This document shows, piece after piece, positions 6,070-43,544 of a DNA stretch of 64,000 bases. Under the pieces are notes generated by a model. That model was not told where the DNA came from. It searched no databases and saw only the letters and a list, made by a program, of their open reading frames with translations. The stretch covers positions 754,963 to 818,962 of the forward strand of contig CP064996.1 in the NCBI GenBank assembly GCA_016699995.1. Reading direction: 5' to 3'. The position numbers and the translations under genes were made by a program. The stretch's first letter is position 1. The number at the start of each line of letters is the position of its first letter. This DNA comes from a bacterium (lineage in GTDB: Bacteria; Patescibacteriota; Doudnabacteria; UBA920).

Positions 6070-7500
6070 TTATTTTACATTCACGGCCTGAACTAAGTTC
6101 ATGCGCTGTCCTAACGGATTCCCCGCGACCAATACAACTTTCTGCCCTTTATGAATTAGCTTCAACCTTTTCGCCTCCGCTACAAAATATTCCAACAATC
6201 CTTCCACATTCTTTAAGGCCGTTAAGCTTTTTACGTATAAAGGCCTAATCCCCCAGAATAATGCCATCTGCCGATATACTTTAGGCCTGTCTGTAAGAAT
6301 TAAGATCGGGGCCACGGGCCGTTCGCGAGAAACAAAGCGGGCGGTGTAGCCGCTCTCGGTAGTACCGATAATTGCTTCTGCCCCGACACCAATCGCCAAA
6401 CGCAGAACAGCGCCAGCAATTAAGGAAGCCTTGTAATCTTCTATCTCGGCCTCCATGCTAAACGGCTGGGCCGGCATATCATCGTAAGGGGAATTTTCTG
6501 TGTCTTCTATGATGCGGCGCATTTCGGCCACAGCTTCGATTGGATAACTGCCGGTGGCGCTTTCGCCAGAAAGCATTACTGCGTCGGCGTGGTCTATAAC
6601 TGCATTCGCAACGTCGGAAACTTCGGCGCGCGTAGGACGTGGGTTGCGGATCATGGAATCGAGCATTTGGGTCGCCACGATAACCGGTTTAGCTACGCTG
6701 TTGCATCGCGAAATTAAATCCTTTTGGATCATCGGCACTTGCGAGTCCGCAATCTCTACGCCCAAGTCGCCACGTGCTACCATAATACCGTCGGCCTCCC
6801 GCAGGATACGATCGAAATTTTCCACGGCCTCCTTGCGTTCGATCTTCGCAATAATCTTTGGAGCGGAGCCGCCTTTGCGCAAATGCTTGTTTATCAGTTT
6901 TCGCAAATTGCGAATATCAGCGCCATTGCGAACGAACGATAGCGCGACGTAATCCACGTCATTTTCTAACCCAAACTTTAGGTCAGCCAAATCCTTGTTA
7001 GTGATAATCGGGAATGTAATAGTACTGTCTGGTAAGTTAACGCCCTTGTGAGATTTCACCACTCCTCCGTTAACAACCTTGCAAGTGATCTTCCCATGAG
7101 TCTTAGAGCCAACCCTGCTCGGCGCCACACTTACCACCTTAAGTTCCATTAATCCATCTTCTATTAAAATGCGCTCGCCCCGCTTAACAGAACGGCTAAT
7201 ATCGAAGTCCATATCAAAATCCCTGCCCAGCATAACTGTCTGACCCTTTTTTATAGCGACAGGCTTCTCTAATTCTCCAATTCGGATTTTAGGACCCTGA
7301 AGATCCTGCAAGATAGCTACCGGCTTGTCCAGTTTCTTAGAAGCGTCCCGGATGGTCTGCATCAACTGTTGATGGTTTGCATAACTGCCATGAGAAAAAT
7401 TAAGGCGGGCCACATTCATCCCGTTCGCTACCATTTTTGTTAAAATTTTTGGATCTTCACTGCTCGGTCCGATCGTTGCTATGATTTTTGTTCGCTTCAT
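6070..7500 (-). CDS. pyk: Pyruvate kinase.
   Basis: 476 aa. MKRTKIIATIGPSS...NVARLNFSHG...KIENxEA...MVARGDLGVEI motifs typical of pyruvate kinase. Confidence 0.9.
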   Translation of the reverse strand: MKRTKIIATIGPSSEDPKILTKMVANGMNVARLNFSHGSYANHQQLMQTIRDASKKLDKPVAILQDLQGPKIRIGELEKPVAIKKGQTVMLGRDFDMDFDISRSVKRGERILIEDGLMELKVVSVAPSRVGSKTHGKITCKVVNGGVVKSHKGVNLPDSTITFPIITNKDLADLKFGLENDVDYVALSFVRNGADIRNLRKLINKHLRKGGSAPKIIAKIERKEAVENFDRILREADGIMVARGDLGVEIADSQVPMIQKDLISRCNSVAKPVIVATQMLDSMIRNPRPTRAEVSDVANAVIDHADAVMLSGESATGSYPIEAVAEMRRIIEDTENSPYDDMPAQPFSMEAEIEDYKASLIAGAVLRLAIGVGAEAIIGTTESGYTARFVSRERPVAPILILTDRPKVYRQMALFWGIRPLYVKSLTALKNVEGLLEYFVAEAKRLKLIHKGQKVVLVAGNPLGQRMNLVQAVNVK

Positions 7501-9255: not shown

Positions 9256-9265
9256 TTTATTGTTA

Positions 9266-9380
9266 AAGGGCAGCTACCTACTTTTGCACTGGCATGCACC
9301 AGACTATCATCGGCACGAGCGCGTTTTACTGCTGAGTTCGGGATGGGATCAGGTAGGACCGCACTGTAAATGCCACCCGG
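9266..9380 (-). rRNA. rrf: 5S ribosomal RNA.
   Basis: The reverse complement contains CCGAACTCAGCAGTAAAACGCGCTCGTGCCGATGATAGTCTGG...AGTAGGTAGCTGCCC, which aligns with the bacterial 5S consensus. Helix I is 5' GGGUGGC / 3' GCUGCCC. The ends are approximate, within a few nt. Confidence 0.8.
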
Positions 9381-10053
9381 CTGGCAATTCCTGCTATTAC
9401 GGCAAGCCGTAAAAGAGAAACTACCAGCTAGAAGGCATTTAACCTTTTAACTTTGAAAACTAAATAGTGGTAACGAGTTTTGCCGGTTTTAAACCAGCAC
9501 CATACTCTATTGCAAGACACTCAAACATTAACCGCGATTTGCTATTACAAATTGCTTGTCAATGATTCGTATAATCCCTTTCTAAAAAGAAAGAAATAGA
9601 TTAGAACTTTCGGTTGATTAGTATTGCTCGGCTCAATTTATTACTAAACTTACACCTGCAACCTATAAAATCGCCACTTTTTAATCCAGGCAAGCCCTTC
9701 ATAAAAAATATTGATTGAAATACGCAGTAGTCTTCTGCGAACCTTTCGTATCCCGAAGGATACAACGAAACCTAGTCTTATGGACAGCTTCGCGCTTATA
9801 TGCTTTCAGCGCTTATCTAAACTATACCTAGCTACCCCGCCATGCTCCTGAAGGAACAACGGGTACACCAGAGGTATATGCATCTCGGTCCTCTCGTACT
9901 AGAGACGCGCCCACTCAAGTTTCGTACACCCACAGCAGATAAGGACCAAACTGTCTCACGACGTTTTGAACCCAGCTCGCGTACCACTTTAATTGGCGAA
10001 CAGCCAAACCCTTGGGAGCTTCTTCACCCCCAGGACGTGATGAGCCGACATCG

Positions 10054-10431
10054 TACCTGAATCCATACTTTCATATGGTGCAGACTATATCTTCATCTTA
10101 TCAACGACGTTAGGCTGGTAGGCCATAGTCTGTTTGTTTATGTTGCTAAGCAACATGATAAGAGTCGGCGTGTTACCTTGCGCTACTCATTATGTAGCCG
10201 ACAAAGTCTCCTCTTTCGAGTCAGTCGTTACGGGGTCAACGCTAATACTAGCGCGACTTCCCACGGTATCGCCGTGTAATACTTTTCTAACATACCACAG
10301 TATTACTTACGGGTTCACCGTTATAAGCCGATTTTATTTTCTTTCTATTATATCTAGAATAGTTTTACCTATTCTAAGACGGACGAAAGACCACAGTATG
10401 AGATCGCTCTCATAGCACCCCGATTAAGTTA
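10054..10431 (-). other. About 378 nt ORF-less insertion in 23S domain V at the position equivalent to E. coli about 2499/2500. Putative group I intron or intervening sequence.
   Basis: The flanks reconstitute the conserved GGCACCU|CGAUGUCGGCUC. The insert carries an AAGATATAGTC S-element-like motif followed by a CCATA-TGAAAG-TATGG hairpin (P9-like) about 45 nt from its 3' end. There is no ORF of 60 aa or more. Confidence 0.5.
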
Positions 10432-11189
10432 AGGTGCCAAACCTTCTCGTCTATGTGGACTATTGGAGAAGATCAGCCTGTTATCCCTAGAGTAACTTTT
10501 ATCCGTTGGGCTTTGCGTCTTCCACTCGAACGCATCGGATCACTAACTTCTGGTTTCCCACCTGCGCGAGTCGCCACTCTTGCAGTCAAGCAGGCTTATG
10601 CGTTTGCACTACCAGCGCGATTTCCATCCGCGCCTAGCCTACCTTAATAAACGCCTCCGTTACCATTTAGGAGGCAACCGCCCCAGTTAAACTACCCACG
10701 AGCCACTGTCCTTGATCAGGTTAGAATCAAGTTAGAATCAACATTCACACAGGGTGGTATTTCACTATTGCCTCCATTGTCGCTAGCGCGACAACTTCAA
10801 AGGCTCCCACCTATACTAAACAGTGTAAACACTGATTCAATAACACGCTATAGTTAAGCTTCATAGGGTCTTTCCGTCTTGCTGCGGGTAGACGGCATCT
10901 TTACCGCCATTGTAAGTTCATCGGAGTGTTCGTTAAGACAGTCCTCTACTCGTTATGCCATTCGTGCGGGTCGTAACTTACACGACAAGGAATTTCGCTA
11001 CCATAGGACGGTTATAGTTACCGCCGGCGTTCATCAGGGCTTGGGCTCCGAGGTTGCCCCAGGAGCTTTGACCTTCTGACACTGGCCAGGCATCAGCCCG
11101 TATACATCAGCTTGCGCTTTAGCACGGACCTAAGTTTTTGATAAACAGTCGGGAGAGGTCATTCGCTGCGGCCTGTTTAACATGCTGGG

Positions 11190-11712
11190 TAAATGGGCGG
11201 AGACTAAAGTTTTTCGTAACCTTGACCTAGCTTGGCACCAAGCGTTTAGTTTACGATTATTTTAGACTCCGCAGCTCGTCGGAAGGAGGGTTCCGTACGA
11301 CGAACAAGAAATGGAATGGGAAGACAACCGCTAGATAGCAGTTATATTCACCTAGAAATTAGGTGAGCAAAGCCTCTTAACAACTGAGCCGGGCGGCGTC
11401 ATTGTTTTACTGCAGCTTAGAAGCTTTGCTCACCACGGCCTACCGGCACTCGCTTCACCCCCTTGAAAGTATGAGGCGGTGCTATTCTTACCTACCGGAA
11501 GAATTCCAGAATTGGCAGTATGGCCGAAACAAAAGTGGGACACACGAGAGGGATTGAACCCCTGACCTCTGCCGTATCAAGGCAGCGCTCTACCCAAGTC
11601 GTAATAACTAGGATCTACCCGGGTAGATGCCTAATCTTCGTACACTGAGCTACGTGCGTCATTAACTTTTATATTTTTCTTTTTTCCATTTACCCAGCAT
11701 GCAAACAGGCAA
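11190..11712 (-). other. About 520 nt intervening sequence in 23S at the helix-63-equivalent site (after about E. coli 1700), closed by a 24/25 bp inverted-repeat stem.
   Basis: 5' arm CCTGTTTGCATGCTGGGTAAATGG (rc of about 11688-11712). 3' arm CCATTTACCCAGCATGTTAAACAGG (rc of about 11190-11215). Nearly perfect complementarity with one bulge. The conserved 23S sequence resumes directly outside both arms. Confidence 0.65.
11530..11660 (-). ncRNA. tRNA-Ile(GAU)-like element embedded inside the 23S intervening sequence, carrying a 47 nt insertion in the D-loop.
   Basis: rc reads GACGCAC-G-TAGCTCAGT-[47 nt insert containing palindrome ATCTACCCGGGTAGAT]-GGGTAGAGC-G-CTGCC-TTGATAC-GGCAG-AGGTC-AGGGG-TTCAATC-CCTCT-CGTGTGTC-CCA. 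It has an acceptor stem, D-stem, anticodon stem with a GAT loop, T-arm GGTTCAATCC and 3' CCA. It resembles, but is distinct from, the genuine tRNA-Ile at 36229..36305. Confidence 0.5.
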
Positions 11713-12382
11713 GGTATATACCGAAGGTACACCTGCTGTATTGCCGAGTTCCTTAACGAACATTGATCCGGACGCCTTAGGATTCTCTCCTCATCCACCT
11801 GTGTCGGTTTGCGGTACGGACAGTTACACGCGTAACCACGACGCTTTTCTTGGCACCTTGGTTCACCCAAATTGCTCTTGCGAGCTTTCTCCATATCTTC
11901 GAGATTACACCAAGCTAAAGTCCCGGAGGACTTAAGCCCAGTTTGAAATTCCGGATTTGCCTAGAATTTCTCCCTACGGATACAGCGACGTACATAGTCA
12001 GAGTACGCTCAGGCTACCATGATGCGTCCCGTCTTGGATAACGCATAACTGGTCAGGGAATATCAACCCTGTTTTCCATCGGATGCACCCCTTGGGGCGC
12101 ACTCTTAGGATCGACTAACCCTGGGACGACGATCGTTGCCCAGGAAACCTTGGATATTCGGCGAAGGGGATTCTCACCCCTATATATATTACTTATTCCA
12201 ACATTCTCACTTGTGCACAGTCCACGAGCCCTTACGGGTCTCGCTTCTGCCCAGTACACAACGCTCCTCTACCGCTATACAAAAATAAATTTATGCATAA
12301 CCCGCGTCTTCGGCACCTAGCTTAGCCCCTATATATTGTCGGCGCAGGATCGCTTGACCAGTGAGCTGTTACGCTTTCTTTA

Positions 12383-12419
<37 letters not shown>

Positions 12420-13259
12420 GAGCAATCCCACATCCTTTGCACTATAGCTAGGATTTGGGGGCCTTAGACGGCGGTGTGGATTCTTCTCCATTCGACCAAT
12501 GGACCTTAGAGCCCATGGTCTAACTGCCACGTTATTTATTCATCAGAATTCGGAGTTTGGTTCGAATCCGACAGTTTCCCACCGGAGTCCGATTCAGTGC
12601 TCTACCTCTGTGAGGAACACGTGACGCTAACCCTAAAGTTATTTCGAGGAGAACCAGCTATCACCCGGTTCGATTAGAATTTCTCTTCGACCCACAGCTC
12701 ATCCCCTGTTTTTGCAGCAACAGTGGGTTCGGACCTCCCGTTGCTTTTACACAACGTTCATCCTGGCCATGGGTAGCTCACTCGGGTTTCGGGTCTAGCG
12801 CGTGCGACATTAAAGAGTATATTCAGCGTCCAGTCGAAACTGAAAACTGAATATATCTTTATACGGACTATTAATCCTCGCTTTCACTACAACTTCGTGT
12901 TTGTTAACACTTAGTTAAGCCACACACAACTAACTCGTTGGATCATTCTTCAATAGGCACGCCGTTAACCTGCGCTGCGGGCAAGCCCGAGCGTTAGGTC
13001 TTCGACTCCTTGTAAGTATATGGTTTCAGAGACTATTTCATTCCCCTTCCGGGGTGCTTTTCACCTTTCCCTCACGGTACTCGTTCACTATCGGTCACTA
13101 TGAGTATTTAGCCTTACGTATTAGTCTACGCTAATTCAGTCCAGATTTCTCGTGTCTGGACTTACTCAAGAAAAAGATCAGGAATTGTATGATGTTTCAC
13201 TATACGGGACTGTCACCCTCTTTGGTCCGCCTTTCCAGGCGTGTTCTGCTACATAGCAC

Positions 13260-13480
13260 ACTAATGTTCCTCTGCGGAATTACTGTTCCGCAACGTCAAT
13301 TCTTATAACGCCTATACTGCAACGCCAGTAAGCTTTAAATTTAATCTCGCTAGTAAACTAGTTTGAAAAAATAACACAGTAAAGGTTTGGGCTAATAGAT
13401 AATTTATTCACCAGACACCAGCATAGGTGTACGATGAATAAATTTCTATATATCTCCGCGTTCGCTCGCCACTACTAACG
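13260..13480 (-). other. About 185 nt AT-rich expansion in 23S domain I (helix 9/10 region).
   Basis: Between the conserved GGCGAGCGAACGCGGAG and ACACGCCTGGAAAGGCGGACC the window has about 230 nt versus about 45 nt in E. coli. It contains the hairpin-forming inverted repeat aatttattcacc...gatgaataaatt. Confidence 0.45.
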
Positions 13481-14250
13481 GAATCGACAAGTGCTTGCGC
13501 ACTCTTTCTTTATTTTCCTCATGCTACTGAGATGTTTCACTTCGCATGGTTCCCGCTCATTTATACCCCACGGTATAAAGGCATGCATTCTTCAAATGCA
13601 TAGGTTTCCCTATTCAGAAATCTCCGGATCAAAGGTTATTGCCACCTCCCCGAAGCGTATCGCCGGCTATCGCGTCTTTCATCGGCTCATAGTACCAAGG
13701 CATCCACCATATACCCTTCTCTGTTTTAATCTACAAGATTATACAGAATTATTTTTGGCTTGCGCCAAAAGTTTTGACAAGCAATTCGTAAAAACAAATT
13801 ACTCGTCGGATACAATGTTTGATAATTGGTTCAGTACAACATCTATTCGCTGTACTTAATTTATTATTCTCACTCTGCGAGCTTTTCAGCCCGCTTATGA
13901 TTTTACTTACAATATTGTTCTGTTGGTTGAAGACAGAACAAATTACCACTATTTAGTTTTCAAAGTACATGACTGATTTCGGCTTGCTCTATATTATAGA
14001 GCGAACTGGTGACTCGAACGACAACTTTCCAGTTGAAGATTGAACGAGGCACAGAAATATTTCCAGTCAGATAACTACTGCTCTGCTAACTAAGTTAGCA
14101 TCCGGTAACATCTCGCCTGATTCCCTAAGAATTAATGGAAGGGCTACATACCTGAGAGCAGTAAATACCTGATTAGAAAATTGTGTTTGAAAGAACGGGT
14201 GGAGAAACAAATTTTGGCGACAAAAAAACCGCAAATCGCGGTGTAAGCTA

Positions 14251-14681: not shown

Positions 14682-17241
<2,560 letters not shown>

Positions 17242-35758: not shown

Positions 35759-35834
35759 GGGCCTCTAGCTCATCTGGTAGAGCGCCGCATTTGCACTGCG
35801 GAGGCGAGCGGTTCGAGTCCGCTGAGGTCCACCA
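35759..35834 (+). tRNA. tRNA-Ala(UGC).
   Basis: GGGCCTC-TA-GCTC-ATCTGGTA-GAGC-G-CCGCA-TTTGCAC-TGCGG-AGGCG-AGCGG-TTCGAGT-CCGCT-GAGGTCC-ACCA. Encoded CCA. Confidence 0.9.
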
Positions 35835-35860
35835 AAAAACCGCCTTAGGGCGGTTTTTTC
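35835..35860 (+). terminator. Rho-independent terminator after tRNA-Ala.
   Basis: aaaaccgcc-ttag-ggcggtttttt. Confidence 0.7.
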
Positions 35861-35917
35861 ATACGCAAAATATCTTATACCCAGGCCGCCGGCCTTTATA
35901 TATAGTATAATTACTTT

Positions 35918-36157
35918 ATGAAATTTATCGTTGGTCCCTTACTCATTGTGCTTGGCGTACTGTTTATGAAGTACACCGTGTGGATTACCCAGCAAGTTGG
36001 GAAAGTCGGTTTCGCCGACAAATGGCTAGGCTTCCCGTTTGCGGGCACCTATTCTTGGTGGAGATTGATAGGATTGTTAATGATCGTCGGCGCCCTGCTC
36101 TGGATGGGTGGATTCCTGGATTTTGGCACTGCAAATATCGAGATTCCAAACTCCTAA
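35918..36157 (+). CDS. Small hydrophobic membrane protein (79 aa) between the two tRNAs.
   Basis: Two predicted TM helices. No recognisable family. Confidence 0.3.
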   Translation: MKFIVGPLLIVLGVLFMKYTVWITQQVGKVGFADKWLGFPFAGTYSWWRLIGLLMIVGALLWMGGFLDFGTANIEIPNS

Positions 36158-36228
36158 GCTCCGAGCTATGCATCTGCCTCGGGGTATTGATTTTTAACCC
36201 GTCTACTGCTAAACTTACTCCTATGTGA

Positions 36229-36305
36229 GGGCGTGTAGCTCAGATGGTTAGAGCGCGTCACTGATAATGACGAGGTCCCAGGTTCGATTCCTGGCACGCC
36301 CACCA
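36229..36305 (+). tRNA. tRNA-Ile(GAU).
   Basis: GGGCGTG-TA-GCTC-AGATGGTTA-GAGC-G-CGTCA-CTGATAA-TGACG-AGGTC-CCAGG-TTCGATT-CCTGG-CACGCCC-ACCA. Confidence 0.9.
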
Positions 36306-41603: not shown

Positions 41604-43066
<1,463 letters not shown>

Positions 43067-43544
43067 AAATAAAACTGCGCACTCTATATATAGAGCTTGC
43101 AAGAGTTTGTTCTCACACTATTACACACCGAAGTGTATAGTGCTCATTGGAGAACTTGGCGATAGATTTATTTTTAAACGTTCTATCAGACGTTTGAAGT
43201 ATTATTGAACTCAAAAAACTTGACGTAATCAATTCCCATACAAACAGACGCGACGGGCAAGCCCGTCACTTCTCTTAAATATAGGCGACAATCTACAAAT
43301 GCATCCATATATAGATGCAAAAGTTTTGTACAACATTTTAATCACTATGCAGTTGTCAAAGTACTATATGGTTTCGCTAATTAGGAGTATAAAAAACACT
43401 CAAAGTGACCTTTGAAGTGCTCATTTCCCGGCATGGCCGGCCCTAGATAATCACCGTAGTTACATCTAAGTGGAATTGAGGTGTGTTTGCTTTTAAATAT
43501 TCTTAATTAGGATTCAAACCAATCTTCTACTATATTAGAGGTTT

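Follow-up and report, generated by a model that had tools for sequence, protein, structure and literature searches.

Can a group I intron that interrupts an essential rRNA gene end in a base other than the terminal guanosine, omega-G? Omega-G is treated as universal in group I introns, the reason being that a single pocket accommodates both the external G of the first splicing step and the terminal G of the second. The question is raised by a 23S rRNA gene in a 64,000-nucleotide stretch of a Doudnabacteria genome (GenBank assembly GCA_016699995.1, contig CP064996.1), hereafter the window, in which an insert resembling a group I intron has an A as its last base (window position 10054) and not omega-G. 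The initial annotation of this DNA had found no clear terminal omega-G, an observation that our analysis confirms, and had hedged between a degenerate intron, a variant intron and an intervening sequence (IVS).

The interrupted gene is 4135 nt long versus about 2900 nt in E. coli, and it is apparently the only 23S gene of its host, whose genome is about 0.94 Mb. Alignment with MAFFT to an E. coli rrl copy revealed several insertions in the window gene, the 378-nt insert being one of them. Numbering in the rrl copy used is 2 above the standard, as calibrated at the L1951 site, and the intron site is therefore U2500/C2501, in the central loop of 23S domain V, i.e. in the catalytic centre. In RNA sense, the 5' junction reads GGUUUGGCACCU / UAACUUAAUCGGGGUGC and the 3' junction AAGAUGAAGAUAUAGUCUGCACCAUAUGAAAGUAUGGAUUCAGGUA / CGAUGUCGGCUC, the longer 3' end of the intron being GGAUUCAGGUA. 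No alternative pair of junctions restores the conserved exon, because a U stands after GGCACCU where a C would be needed and an A stands before CGAUG where a U would be needed. Two close relatives without the intron, L242 and L245, read GGCACCU / CGAUGUCGG at this place, with the downstream part starting CGAUG. The E. coli alignment and the listing of RNA-sense ORFs, none of which exceeds 25 aa within the intron, agree with the initial annotation of an ORF-less insert at 10054-10431 and at E. coli about 2499/2500; the window copy has no endonuclease ORF, and the sequences quoted in that annotation, including the flanks that restore the GGCACCU exon, are all present as quoted. Opposite the intron, an antisense ORF of 93 aa with a TTG start (10134-10415, plus strand) is probably spurious.

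The same gene carries further blocks that are absent from the E. coli gene (Table 1), among them an insertion in H63 with a 25-bp closing stem (GCCUGUUUGCAUGCUGGGUAAAUGG / CCAUUUACCCAGCAUGUUAAACAGGC, -44 kcal/mol). Inside it lies an element that resembles a tRNA cloverleaf: its anticodon loop, UUGAUAC, is Ile-like, CCA is encoded, and the D-loop is enlarged by 48 nt. With the Rfam tRNA model this element scores 27.3 bits, just under the gathering score of 29. A compact tRNA-like version with a 6-nt anticodon loop is present in the 23S gene of L243 and scores 60.7 bits, above gathering, and L144 also has such an element (37.3 bits). The H63 block measures 619-858 nt in five of five relatives of the host lineage versus 94-141 nt in 40 of 42 other sampled 23S genes (174 and 261 nt in the other two). 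Its interior cannot be aligned between relatives, and the stem at its base shows compensatory changes. The block has the appearance of a spacer or IVS that evolves rapidly and contains a tRNA-like module for processing, and it may imply a fragmented 23S rRNA.

Two other features of the window deserve mention. The 16S gene, on the minus strand, is not linked to the 23S and 5S genes but lies 28 kb from them, the tRNA/16S region occupying 35759-36305 and 41605-43071; tRNA-Ala(TGC) followed by tRNA-Ile(GAT), two genes that are normally located in the 16S-23S spacer, is found 5 kb from the 16S gene on the opposite strand. The gene for NAD-dependent DNA ligase (14682-16830, minus strand) is split into ORFs of 197 aa (16237-16830) and 509 aa (14682-16211) by a break inside the adenylation domain. 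The break could stem from a frameshift, from decay into a pseudogene or from an error of sequencing; in L245, a syntenic relative, LigA is a single protein of 711 aa.

What kind of element is the insert? The Rfam model RF00028 (Intron_gpI) matches it over the whole model (1-253) at 10062-10376(-) with 41.1 bits (E = 3e-9). As the gathering score is 50, a search at the default Rfam threshold does not list this match. Relatives that do end in omega-G also score below gathering (L143, 38.6 bits; L155, 42.6 bits), and the sub-threshold score is a trait of the family. The RF00028 alignment covers all core elements, including the R element GUAACGACUG and the S element AAGAUAUAGUC, and it leaves about 55 extra bases between P7 and P3', which make up the hairpins P7.1 and P7.2. 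Hairpins P7.1 and P7.2 are the mark of IA-type introns. The minimum free energy (MFE) of the intron is -115.3 kcal/mol versus -90.1 +/- 4.6 kcal/mol for shuffled sequences (z = -5.5), and the unconstrained fold recovers P2, P2.1, P4-P5a, P6a, P7.2 and P9. From these sequence features we assign the insert to the group I introns with an IA-type core. For subgroup IA3, the comparison covers the presence and covariation of P7.1 and P7.2 and a core motif common to the introns at L1951, the site of the IA3 intron Cbu.L1951.

The group I-like reading of the initial annotation is thus upheld by a match to the full model, although the score is below gathering, and its individual landmarks find their places in the RF00028 alignment: the S-element motif is the 3' strand of P7, and the hairpin with a GNRA-like cap is P9 with a GAAA loop. 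The P1 guide that it had suggested looking for is present as GGGUGC, which pairs with the 5' exon GCACCU and places a U2500·G pair at the splice site. The four bases directly 5' of this guide, AUCG, pair with CGAU at the start of the 3' exon, and P1 and P10 therefore abut with no gap; across 29 relatives, 97% of the cells of P10 are paired, with three changes from C-G to U·G. In the 5' strand of P7, the G of the G-binding G-C pair stands beside a bulged C, and the predicted guanosine-binding site, composed of the strands AACGACUG and UAGUCU with the bulged C and the G-C pair, has the expected R/S register.

Table 1. Coordinates in the window of the 23S rRNA gene, its extra blocks and the parts of the L2500 intron (sequences in RNA sense).
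Feature	Coordinates	Strand	Remarks
23S rRNA gene	9597-13731	minus	Rfam LSU_rRNA_bacteria, 2191 bits, full model 1-2925
5S rRNA gene	9265-9380		downstream of 23S
Intron	10054-10431	minus	378 nt; MAFFT alignment to E. coli rrl copy; RF00028 match
P1, 5' exon strand GCACCU, ends in U2500	10432-10437	minus	pairs with GGGUGC; U·G at splice site in 29/29 relatives
Internal guide sequence GGGUGC, P1 3' strand, intron nt 12-17	10415-10420	minus
P10, intron strand AUCG, intron nt 8-11, directly 5' of guide	10421-10424	minus
P10, 3' exon strand CGAU, C2501-U2504	10050-10053	minus
P2 hairpin, 7 bp, GCGA loop	10397-10414	minus	7/7 pairs with compensatory changes; in MFE fold
P2.1 peripheral extension	10336-10394	minus	common to L110, L243, L246
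P3 5' strand UCGGC	10327-10331	minus	pairs with 10165-10169; 2 pairs with compensatory changes
P4-P5-P5a domain: P4 ACGGUG/UACCGU, P5 CCG/CGG, P5a hairpin	10263-10321	minus	covariation and MFE
P6/P6a hairpin	10235-10257	minus	GUC/GAC, GUU/AAC, GCC/GGC among relatives
J6/7 and P7 5' strand CCCGUAACGACUG	10222-10234	minus	R element of RF00028; invariant in all relatives
P7.1 hairpin CUC-GAAA-GAG	10211-10220	minus	compensatory C-G to U-A
P7.2 hairpin	10175-10207	minus	7/8 pairs with compensatory changes
P3 3' strand GCCGA	10165-10169	minus
P8 with internal hairpins	10096-10163	minus	5/6 outer pairs with compensatory changes
J8/7 and P7 3' strand UGAAGAUA-UAGUCU	10082-10095	minus	S element
J7/9 GCA	10079-10081	minus	first two bases form P9.0 with G(-3), U(-2)
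P9 hairpin CCAUAU-GAAA-GUAUGG	10063-10078	minus	covariation and RF00028 alignment
3' tail AUUCAGGUA	10054-10062	minus	G(-3)U(-2) is P9.0 3' strand; A(-1) at 10054 in the place of omega-G
H63 insertion	11153-11705	minus	roughly 500 nt; E. coli about 1719-1771
Cloverleaf-like element in H63 insertion	about 11535-11659
Extra block	13266-13453	minus	about 170 nt; near E. coli 263-278
Extra block	12842-12878	minus	37 nt; near E. coli 638
Extra block	9670-9722	minus	53 nt; near E. coli 2833

Relatives of the intron came from several sources. A metagenome scan with a 27-nt core motif spanning J6/7, P7 and P7.1 returned at least 120 loci, and mapping of their flanks on the E. coli 23S rRNA placed most of the matches listed at L1951, about 35 at L2500 and few elsewhere. 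Many of the L1951 introns among these matches carry a large extra block; in most of the 58 copies listed it measures roughly 400-500 nt and lies between the core motif and the 3' end, where it is probably an endonuclease ORF. A scan of genome contigs with the pattern TTTGGCACCTN{3,20}GGTGC was too loose, nearly all of its at least 120 matches being chance, and L008 and L110 are the only true L2500 relatives among the matches listed. Two more, L243 and L246, were found in the neighbourhood of homologues of the pyruvate kinase gene of the window (6070-7500(-)), the product of which is 77-84% identical to proteins of Ca. Doudnabacteria and 80% identical to one Patescibacteria group protein. These identities make the host a CPR bacterium; a placement in Saccharibacteria (TM7), also considered, was dropped because of them and because the 16S rRNA of the window lacks the U912 signature of TM7. 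Both of these syntenic relatives carry the A-ending form, L242 and L245 have no L2500 intron, and the sequence of L244 does not reach the 23S gene; the intron is therefore absent from some close relatives of the host and present in others. A BLAST comparison with phages and plasmids gave a single kind of match, a 35-nt stretch of the S element and P9 in Clostridium phage c-st and related plasmids. This stretch (AP008983.1, 128206-128241; 92% identity) is unannotated in the phage, recurs in related Clostridium botulinum plasmids, and suggests an as yet unannotated group I intron there.

To what extent is the fold maintained among these relatives? For the analysis of covariation, 29 distinct L2500 introns were cut into helix segments at fixed offsets from invariant anchors, yielding a gapless pseudo-alignment of 185 columns, and the named structure was counted as 65 pairs, including the P7, P9.0 and P10 pseudoknots. 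Over these pairs and relatives, 95.3% of the cells are paired, a value that is inflated because the tested structure was derived from the same 29 sequences, whereas the compensatory counts relative to slid controls are not affected. Changes on both sides were found in 32 of the 65 pairs, in 258 cells, and the covariation score is 0.376 versus at most 0.095 with the partners slid by 1-3 columns, which brings pairing to 34-45%; none of 500 shuffles reached the observed covariation values. Compensatory changes are abundant in P2, P7.2, P8 and P9, and P3, P5, P6 and P7.1 have two such pairs each. Because P1 and P7 never vary, covariation is silent on both, for or against. This pattern argues that the catalytic core is under structural selection. 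Among the hosts of A-ending introns, the flanking 250 nt of 23S are a median of 78% identical and the intron cores 62-97% identical, and the A-ending trait has therefore persisted through much divergence.

Is the terminal A then a peculiarity of the window copy? Among the matches listed, 21 of the 31 L2500 relatives with a readable 3' junction end in A (19 in GUA, one in AUA and one in AAA), the remaining ten end in G, and none ends in C or U; L110, L243 and L246, close relatives of the host, all end in GUA. The L1951 sister introns, which share the core, end in G in 58 of 58 copies among the matches listed. The G-binding pair in P7 is identical in A-ending and G-ending types. P9.0 is formed in 49 of the 51 distinct L1951 sisters by the first two bases of J7/9 and the two that precede omega-G, and these pairs covary (AC:GU in 15, GC:GC in 14, GC:GU in 13 and GU:AU in 5). 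The A-ending introns keep the P9.0 geometry of the sisters, with J7/9 RC pairing with G(-3)U(-2) and the A following. L134 combines J7/9 AU with the tail AUA, i.e. a compensated P9.0 pair, and L231 ends in GUG where its nearest relatives have GUA; L144 ends in GAG. From the shared P9.0 geometry and from L134 and L231 it follows that position -1 is the omega position and holds either G or A. The terminal A is thus, on comparison of these sequences, a conserved trait of a large L2500 subfamily and not damage to the window copy. Of the readings between which the initial annotation had hedged, the variant intron is the one that stands, given a terminal A conserved in a diversified subfamily and a core that appears to be under structural selection; the degenerate intron is disfavoured by the same observations, and the IVS by the position of the insert away from any helix tip and by the lack of a closing stem.

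We looked for features that might compensate for the terminal A. In P7, we found none among the L2500 relatives, the helix being invariant. P10 is formed with 4-6 bp in 16 of 19 A-ending and ten of ten G-ending copies, and its length does not differ between the two. A separate feature concerns some G-ending copies: L008, L143, L162 and L212 have a longer tail that ends in CCGACAG or UCGACAG and is complementary to the 3' exon UGUCGG. The tail resembles a copy of the exon start CGAUGU, and a hairpin spanning the 3' splice site could result.

Building on these comparisons of genomic sequence, we propose that the insert is probably a spliced IA-type group I intron that uses its terminal A. In our model, the intron would fold into the P3-P9 core, and the guide GGGUGC would pair with GCACCU to form P1 with U2500·G at the splice site. 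As the conserved anatomy implies, the bond after U2500 would be attacked by an external guanosine held at the G-C site of P7, which is unchanged. The 3' splice site would be held by P10 (AUCG/CGAU) and P9.0 (J7/9 GC with G(-3)U(-2)), and in the second step U2500 would attack the bond after the terminal A, restoring the universal CACCU-CGAUG. We favour this model because the interrupted gene is an essential one, of which the host probably has a single copy, because the core is conserved together with P10 and P9.0, helices that serve only 3' splice site choice and ligation, and because the Coxiella intron Cbu.L1917 discussed below offers a precedent. A point against it comes from the Tetrahymena ribozyme, in which an A in place of omega-G prevents most exon ligation, except where an A-U pair replaces the G-C pair of the G-binding site; the L2500 introns have kept the G-C pair.

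This point leads to the boldest alternative, in which the A-ending L2500 introns have given up ordinary ligation, so that the 23S rRNA is split at U2500/C2501 or the second step depends on a host factor; we consider it unlikely. The milder and likelier claim is that a whole natural clade ligates its exons with a terminal A in an unaltered G pocket, which we hold to be probable. In the split form of the alternative, to which we give a similarly small chance, the ribozyme would cut without ligating, or cellular RNases would excise the insert, leaving, as at an IVS, two parts of the 23S rRNA that stay associated within the ribosome. By analogy with model ribozymes, a terminal A is indeed expected to cripple the second step, and the same gene has the H63 insertion with its long closing stem, which resembles a processing substrate; moreover, CPR 23S genes are rich in insertions, some of which are thought to be removed without ligation (PMC11270868). 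The L2500 insert, however, lies in an unpaired stretch of the catalytic centre, away from any helix tip, and is not closed by a stem; its ends are unpaired with each other in both the MFE and the centroid fold, and the features of an RNase III-type IVS are absent. To free the 3' exon by hydrolysis at the 3' splice site, the ribozyme would have to recognise omega just as it does for ligation. Furthermore, most A-ending copies have kept P10, a helix needed for exon ligation alone, and its C/U changes preserve pairing; P9.0 is likewise kept beside the terminal A.

Alternatively, the intron might never be removed and stay in the mature 23S rRNA. A bacterial 23S group I intron, Simkania L1931, has been reported, according to the title of the paper, to remain unspliced (Everett et al. 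1999), but 378 nt retained at U2500/C2501 would lie within the catalytic centre of what looks like the host's only 23S rRNA. Nor does an idle ribozyme explain why the core, P1, P10 and P9.0 are conserved, with compensatory changes, among hosts whose flanking exons are about 78% identical. We therefore regard retention as improbable.

Even less probable, in our view, is that the true omega is G(-3), with the final UA either left in the rRNA (CCU-UA-CGAUG; junction GGCACCUUACGAUG) or accommodated by a 5' splice site shifted by two bases (CAC-UA-CGAUG). A G does occupy this position in 19 of the 21 A-ending copies among the matches listed, and the G-binding site is standard, but L134 (AUA) and L200 (AAA) have no G at -3. 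G(-3)U(-2) correspond to the P9.0 positions that precede omega in 49 of the 51 sisters, and L134 compensates on the J7/9 side. P10 starts at C2501 and directly abuts P1, no U·G pair would remain if the 5' site were shifted, and intron-less relatives carry the universal CCUCGAUG; a 2-nt insertion or a double substitution at 2499-2501, in the peptidyl transferase loop, would very probably not be tolerated. Finally, that the terminal A is a sequencing or assembly error, or the rRNA gene a decaying pseudogene, is scarcely credible, given the same ending in 20 other independently assembled relatives and a 23S gene that matches the full model with 2191 bits and has a 5S gene downstream of it.

Where did the A-ending introns come from? 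In a Pfam scan, full-length LAGLIDADG_2 proteins were found in L139 and L231, both of which are G-ending L2500 introns; G-ending L157 has a similar ORF of 199 aa and G-ending L212 a shorter one of 148 aa. The sole A-ending copy with an ORF, L197, retains only the N-terminal half. Among the copies sampled, intact LAGLIDADG_2 ORFs are thus confined to G-ending L2500 introns. From this distribution, the A-ending, ORF-less introns appear to descend from mobile G-ending introns with LAGLIDADG endonucleases, and the window copy appears to be an endonuclease-free derivative. A bootstrapped neighbour-joining tree of the introns has support below 0.6 at depth, and we therefore make no claim on the number of exchanges between G and A. 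Further insertions were seen in the 23S genes of relatives: L231 has three more Intron_gpI matches just downstream of its L2500 intron (L231:1034-2091), L008 has another insertion after GAGACAG, near E. coli 2593 (L008 about 150-290), and L245, which has no L2500 intron, carries a LAGLIDADG_1 ORF elsewhere in its 23S gene (L245:5198-5716).

A natural and diversified clade of introns in an essential, probably single-copy rRNA gene has kept the pocket, P9.0 and P10 and yet has an A at omega, whereas its sisters always have a G. Should the clade indeed ligate its exons with a terminal A, omega-G would not be obligatory when P9.0 and P10 hold the splice site. If spliced, these introns would constitute a ready-made natural system in which matched pairs of A-ending and G-ending copies, e.g. 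L163 and L231, could inform on the choice of the 3' splice site without G recognition. If they are not spliced, the catalytic centre of their hosts' ribosomes contains a break or an insert, and if the second step depends on a host factor, ribosome production is conditional on that factor.

The L2500 introns can be compared with several known systems. Tsurumaki et al. (2024) found insertions in 82% of CPR 23S genes, 45% of the insertions being group I by Rfam, and described how they cluster around the peptidyl transferase centre, with ORF-containing and ORF-less copies at the same sites (PMC11270868). The main text of this survey does not mention position 2500 or the 3' terminal base of the introns and its supplement holds no table of sites; its sites 23IS9-11, between 1952 and 2593, may include the L2500 site. 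The survey relied on Rfam for classification, and at the gathering score the window copy is not called group I. As this score misses the L2500 family, gathering-based surveys of CPR rRNA introns undercount. In the literature that we searched, there is no account of the terminal base of CPR 23S introns or of a clade without omega-G.

The omega mutants of Tetrahymena pose the same question, namely whether a terminal A can be used. Work by Michel and colleagues in 1989 and by Been and Perrotta in 1991 is said to have found that a terminal A is accepted only after the G-C pair of the binding site is changed to A-U; in the window intron, in contrast, the G-C pair is unchanged. Simkania negevensis L1931 is, like the window intron, a bacterial 23S group I intron, located at another site and with the abnormal fate, as stated in the title of the report, of remaining unspliced (Everett et al. 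1999), and nothing in the window data points to such retention. The L1951 introns of CPR hosts share with the L2500 introns the J6/7-P7-P7.1 motif, which was the search pattern, as well as the P7 3' strand, the P9 hairpin, the P9.0 geometry and the host group, and they differ in site, in guide sequence and in ending uniformly in G, as seen in all 58 matches listed. The L1951 site is also occupied in Coxiella, by the Cbu.L1951 intron of subgroup IA3.

The closest parallel is provided by a second Coxiella intron, Cbu.L1917, which reportedly has adenine as its last base and is, to our knowledge, the only natural precedent for an ending other than omega-G. According to the title of the report on Coxiella burnetii (Raghavan et al. 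2007, J Bacteriol 189:6572), Cbu.L1917 is a group I intron of the 23S gene that self-splices and "lacks the canonical omegaG". Cbu.L1917 and the window intron are thus alike in being bacterial 23S group I introns with a last base other than omega-G, self-splicing being reported for the former. They differ in site and class, with subgroup IB2 at L1917 for the Coxiella intron versus an IA-type core with P7.1 and P7.2 at L2500 for the window intron, and in distribution, Cbu.L1917 being found in one species and the A-ending L2500 introns forming a diversified clade in many CPR hosts (21 of the 31 copies among the matches listed). The window intron is therefore a known kind of element from which one defining feature is missing in a conserved way, and for which there is one precedent, at the level of a single species.
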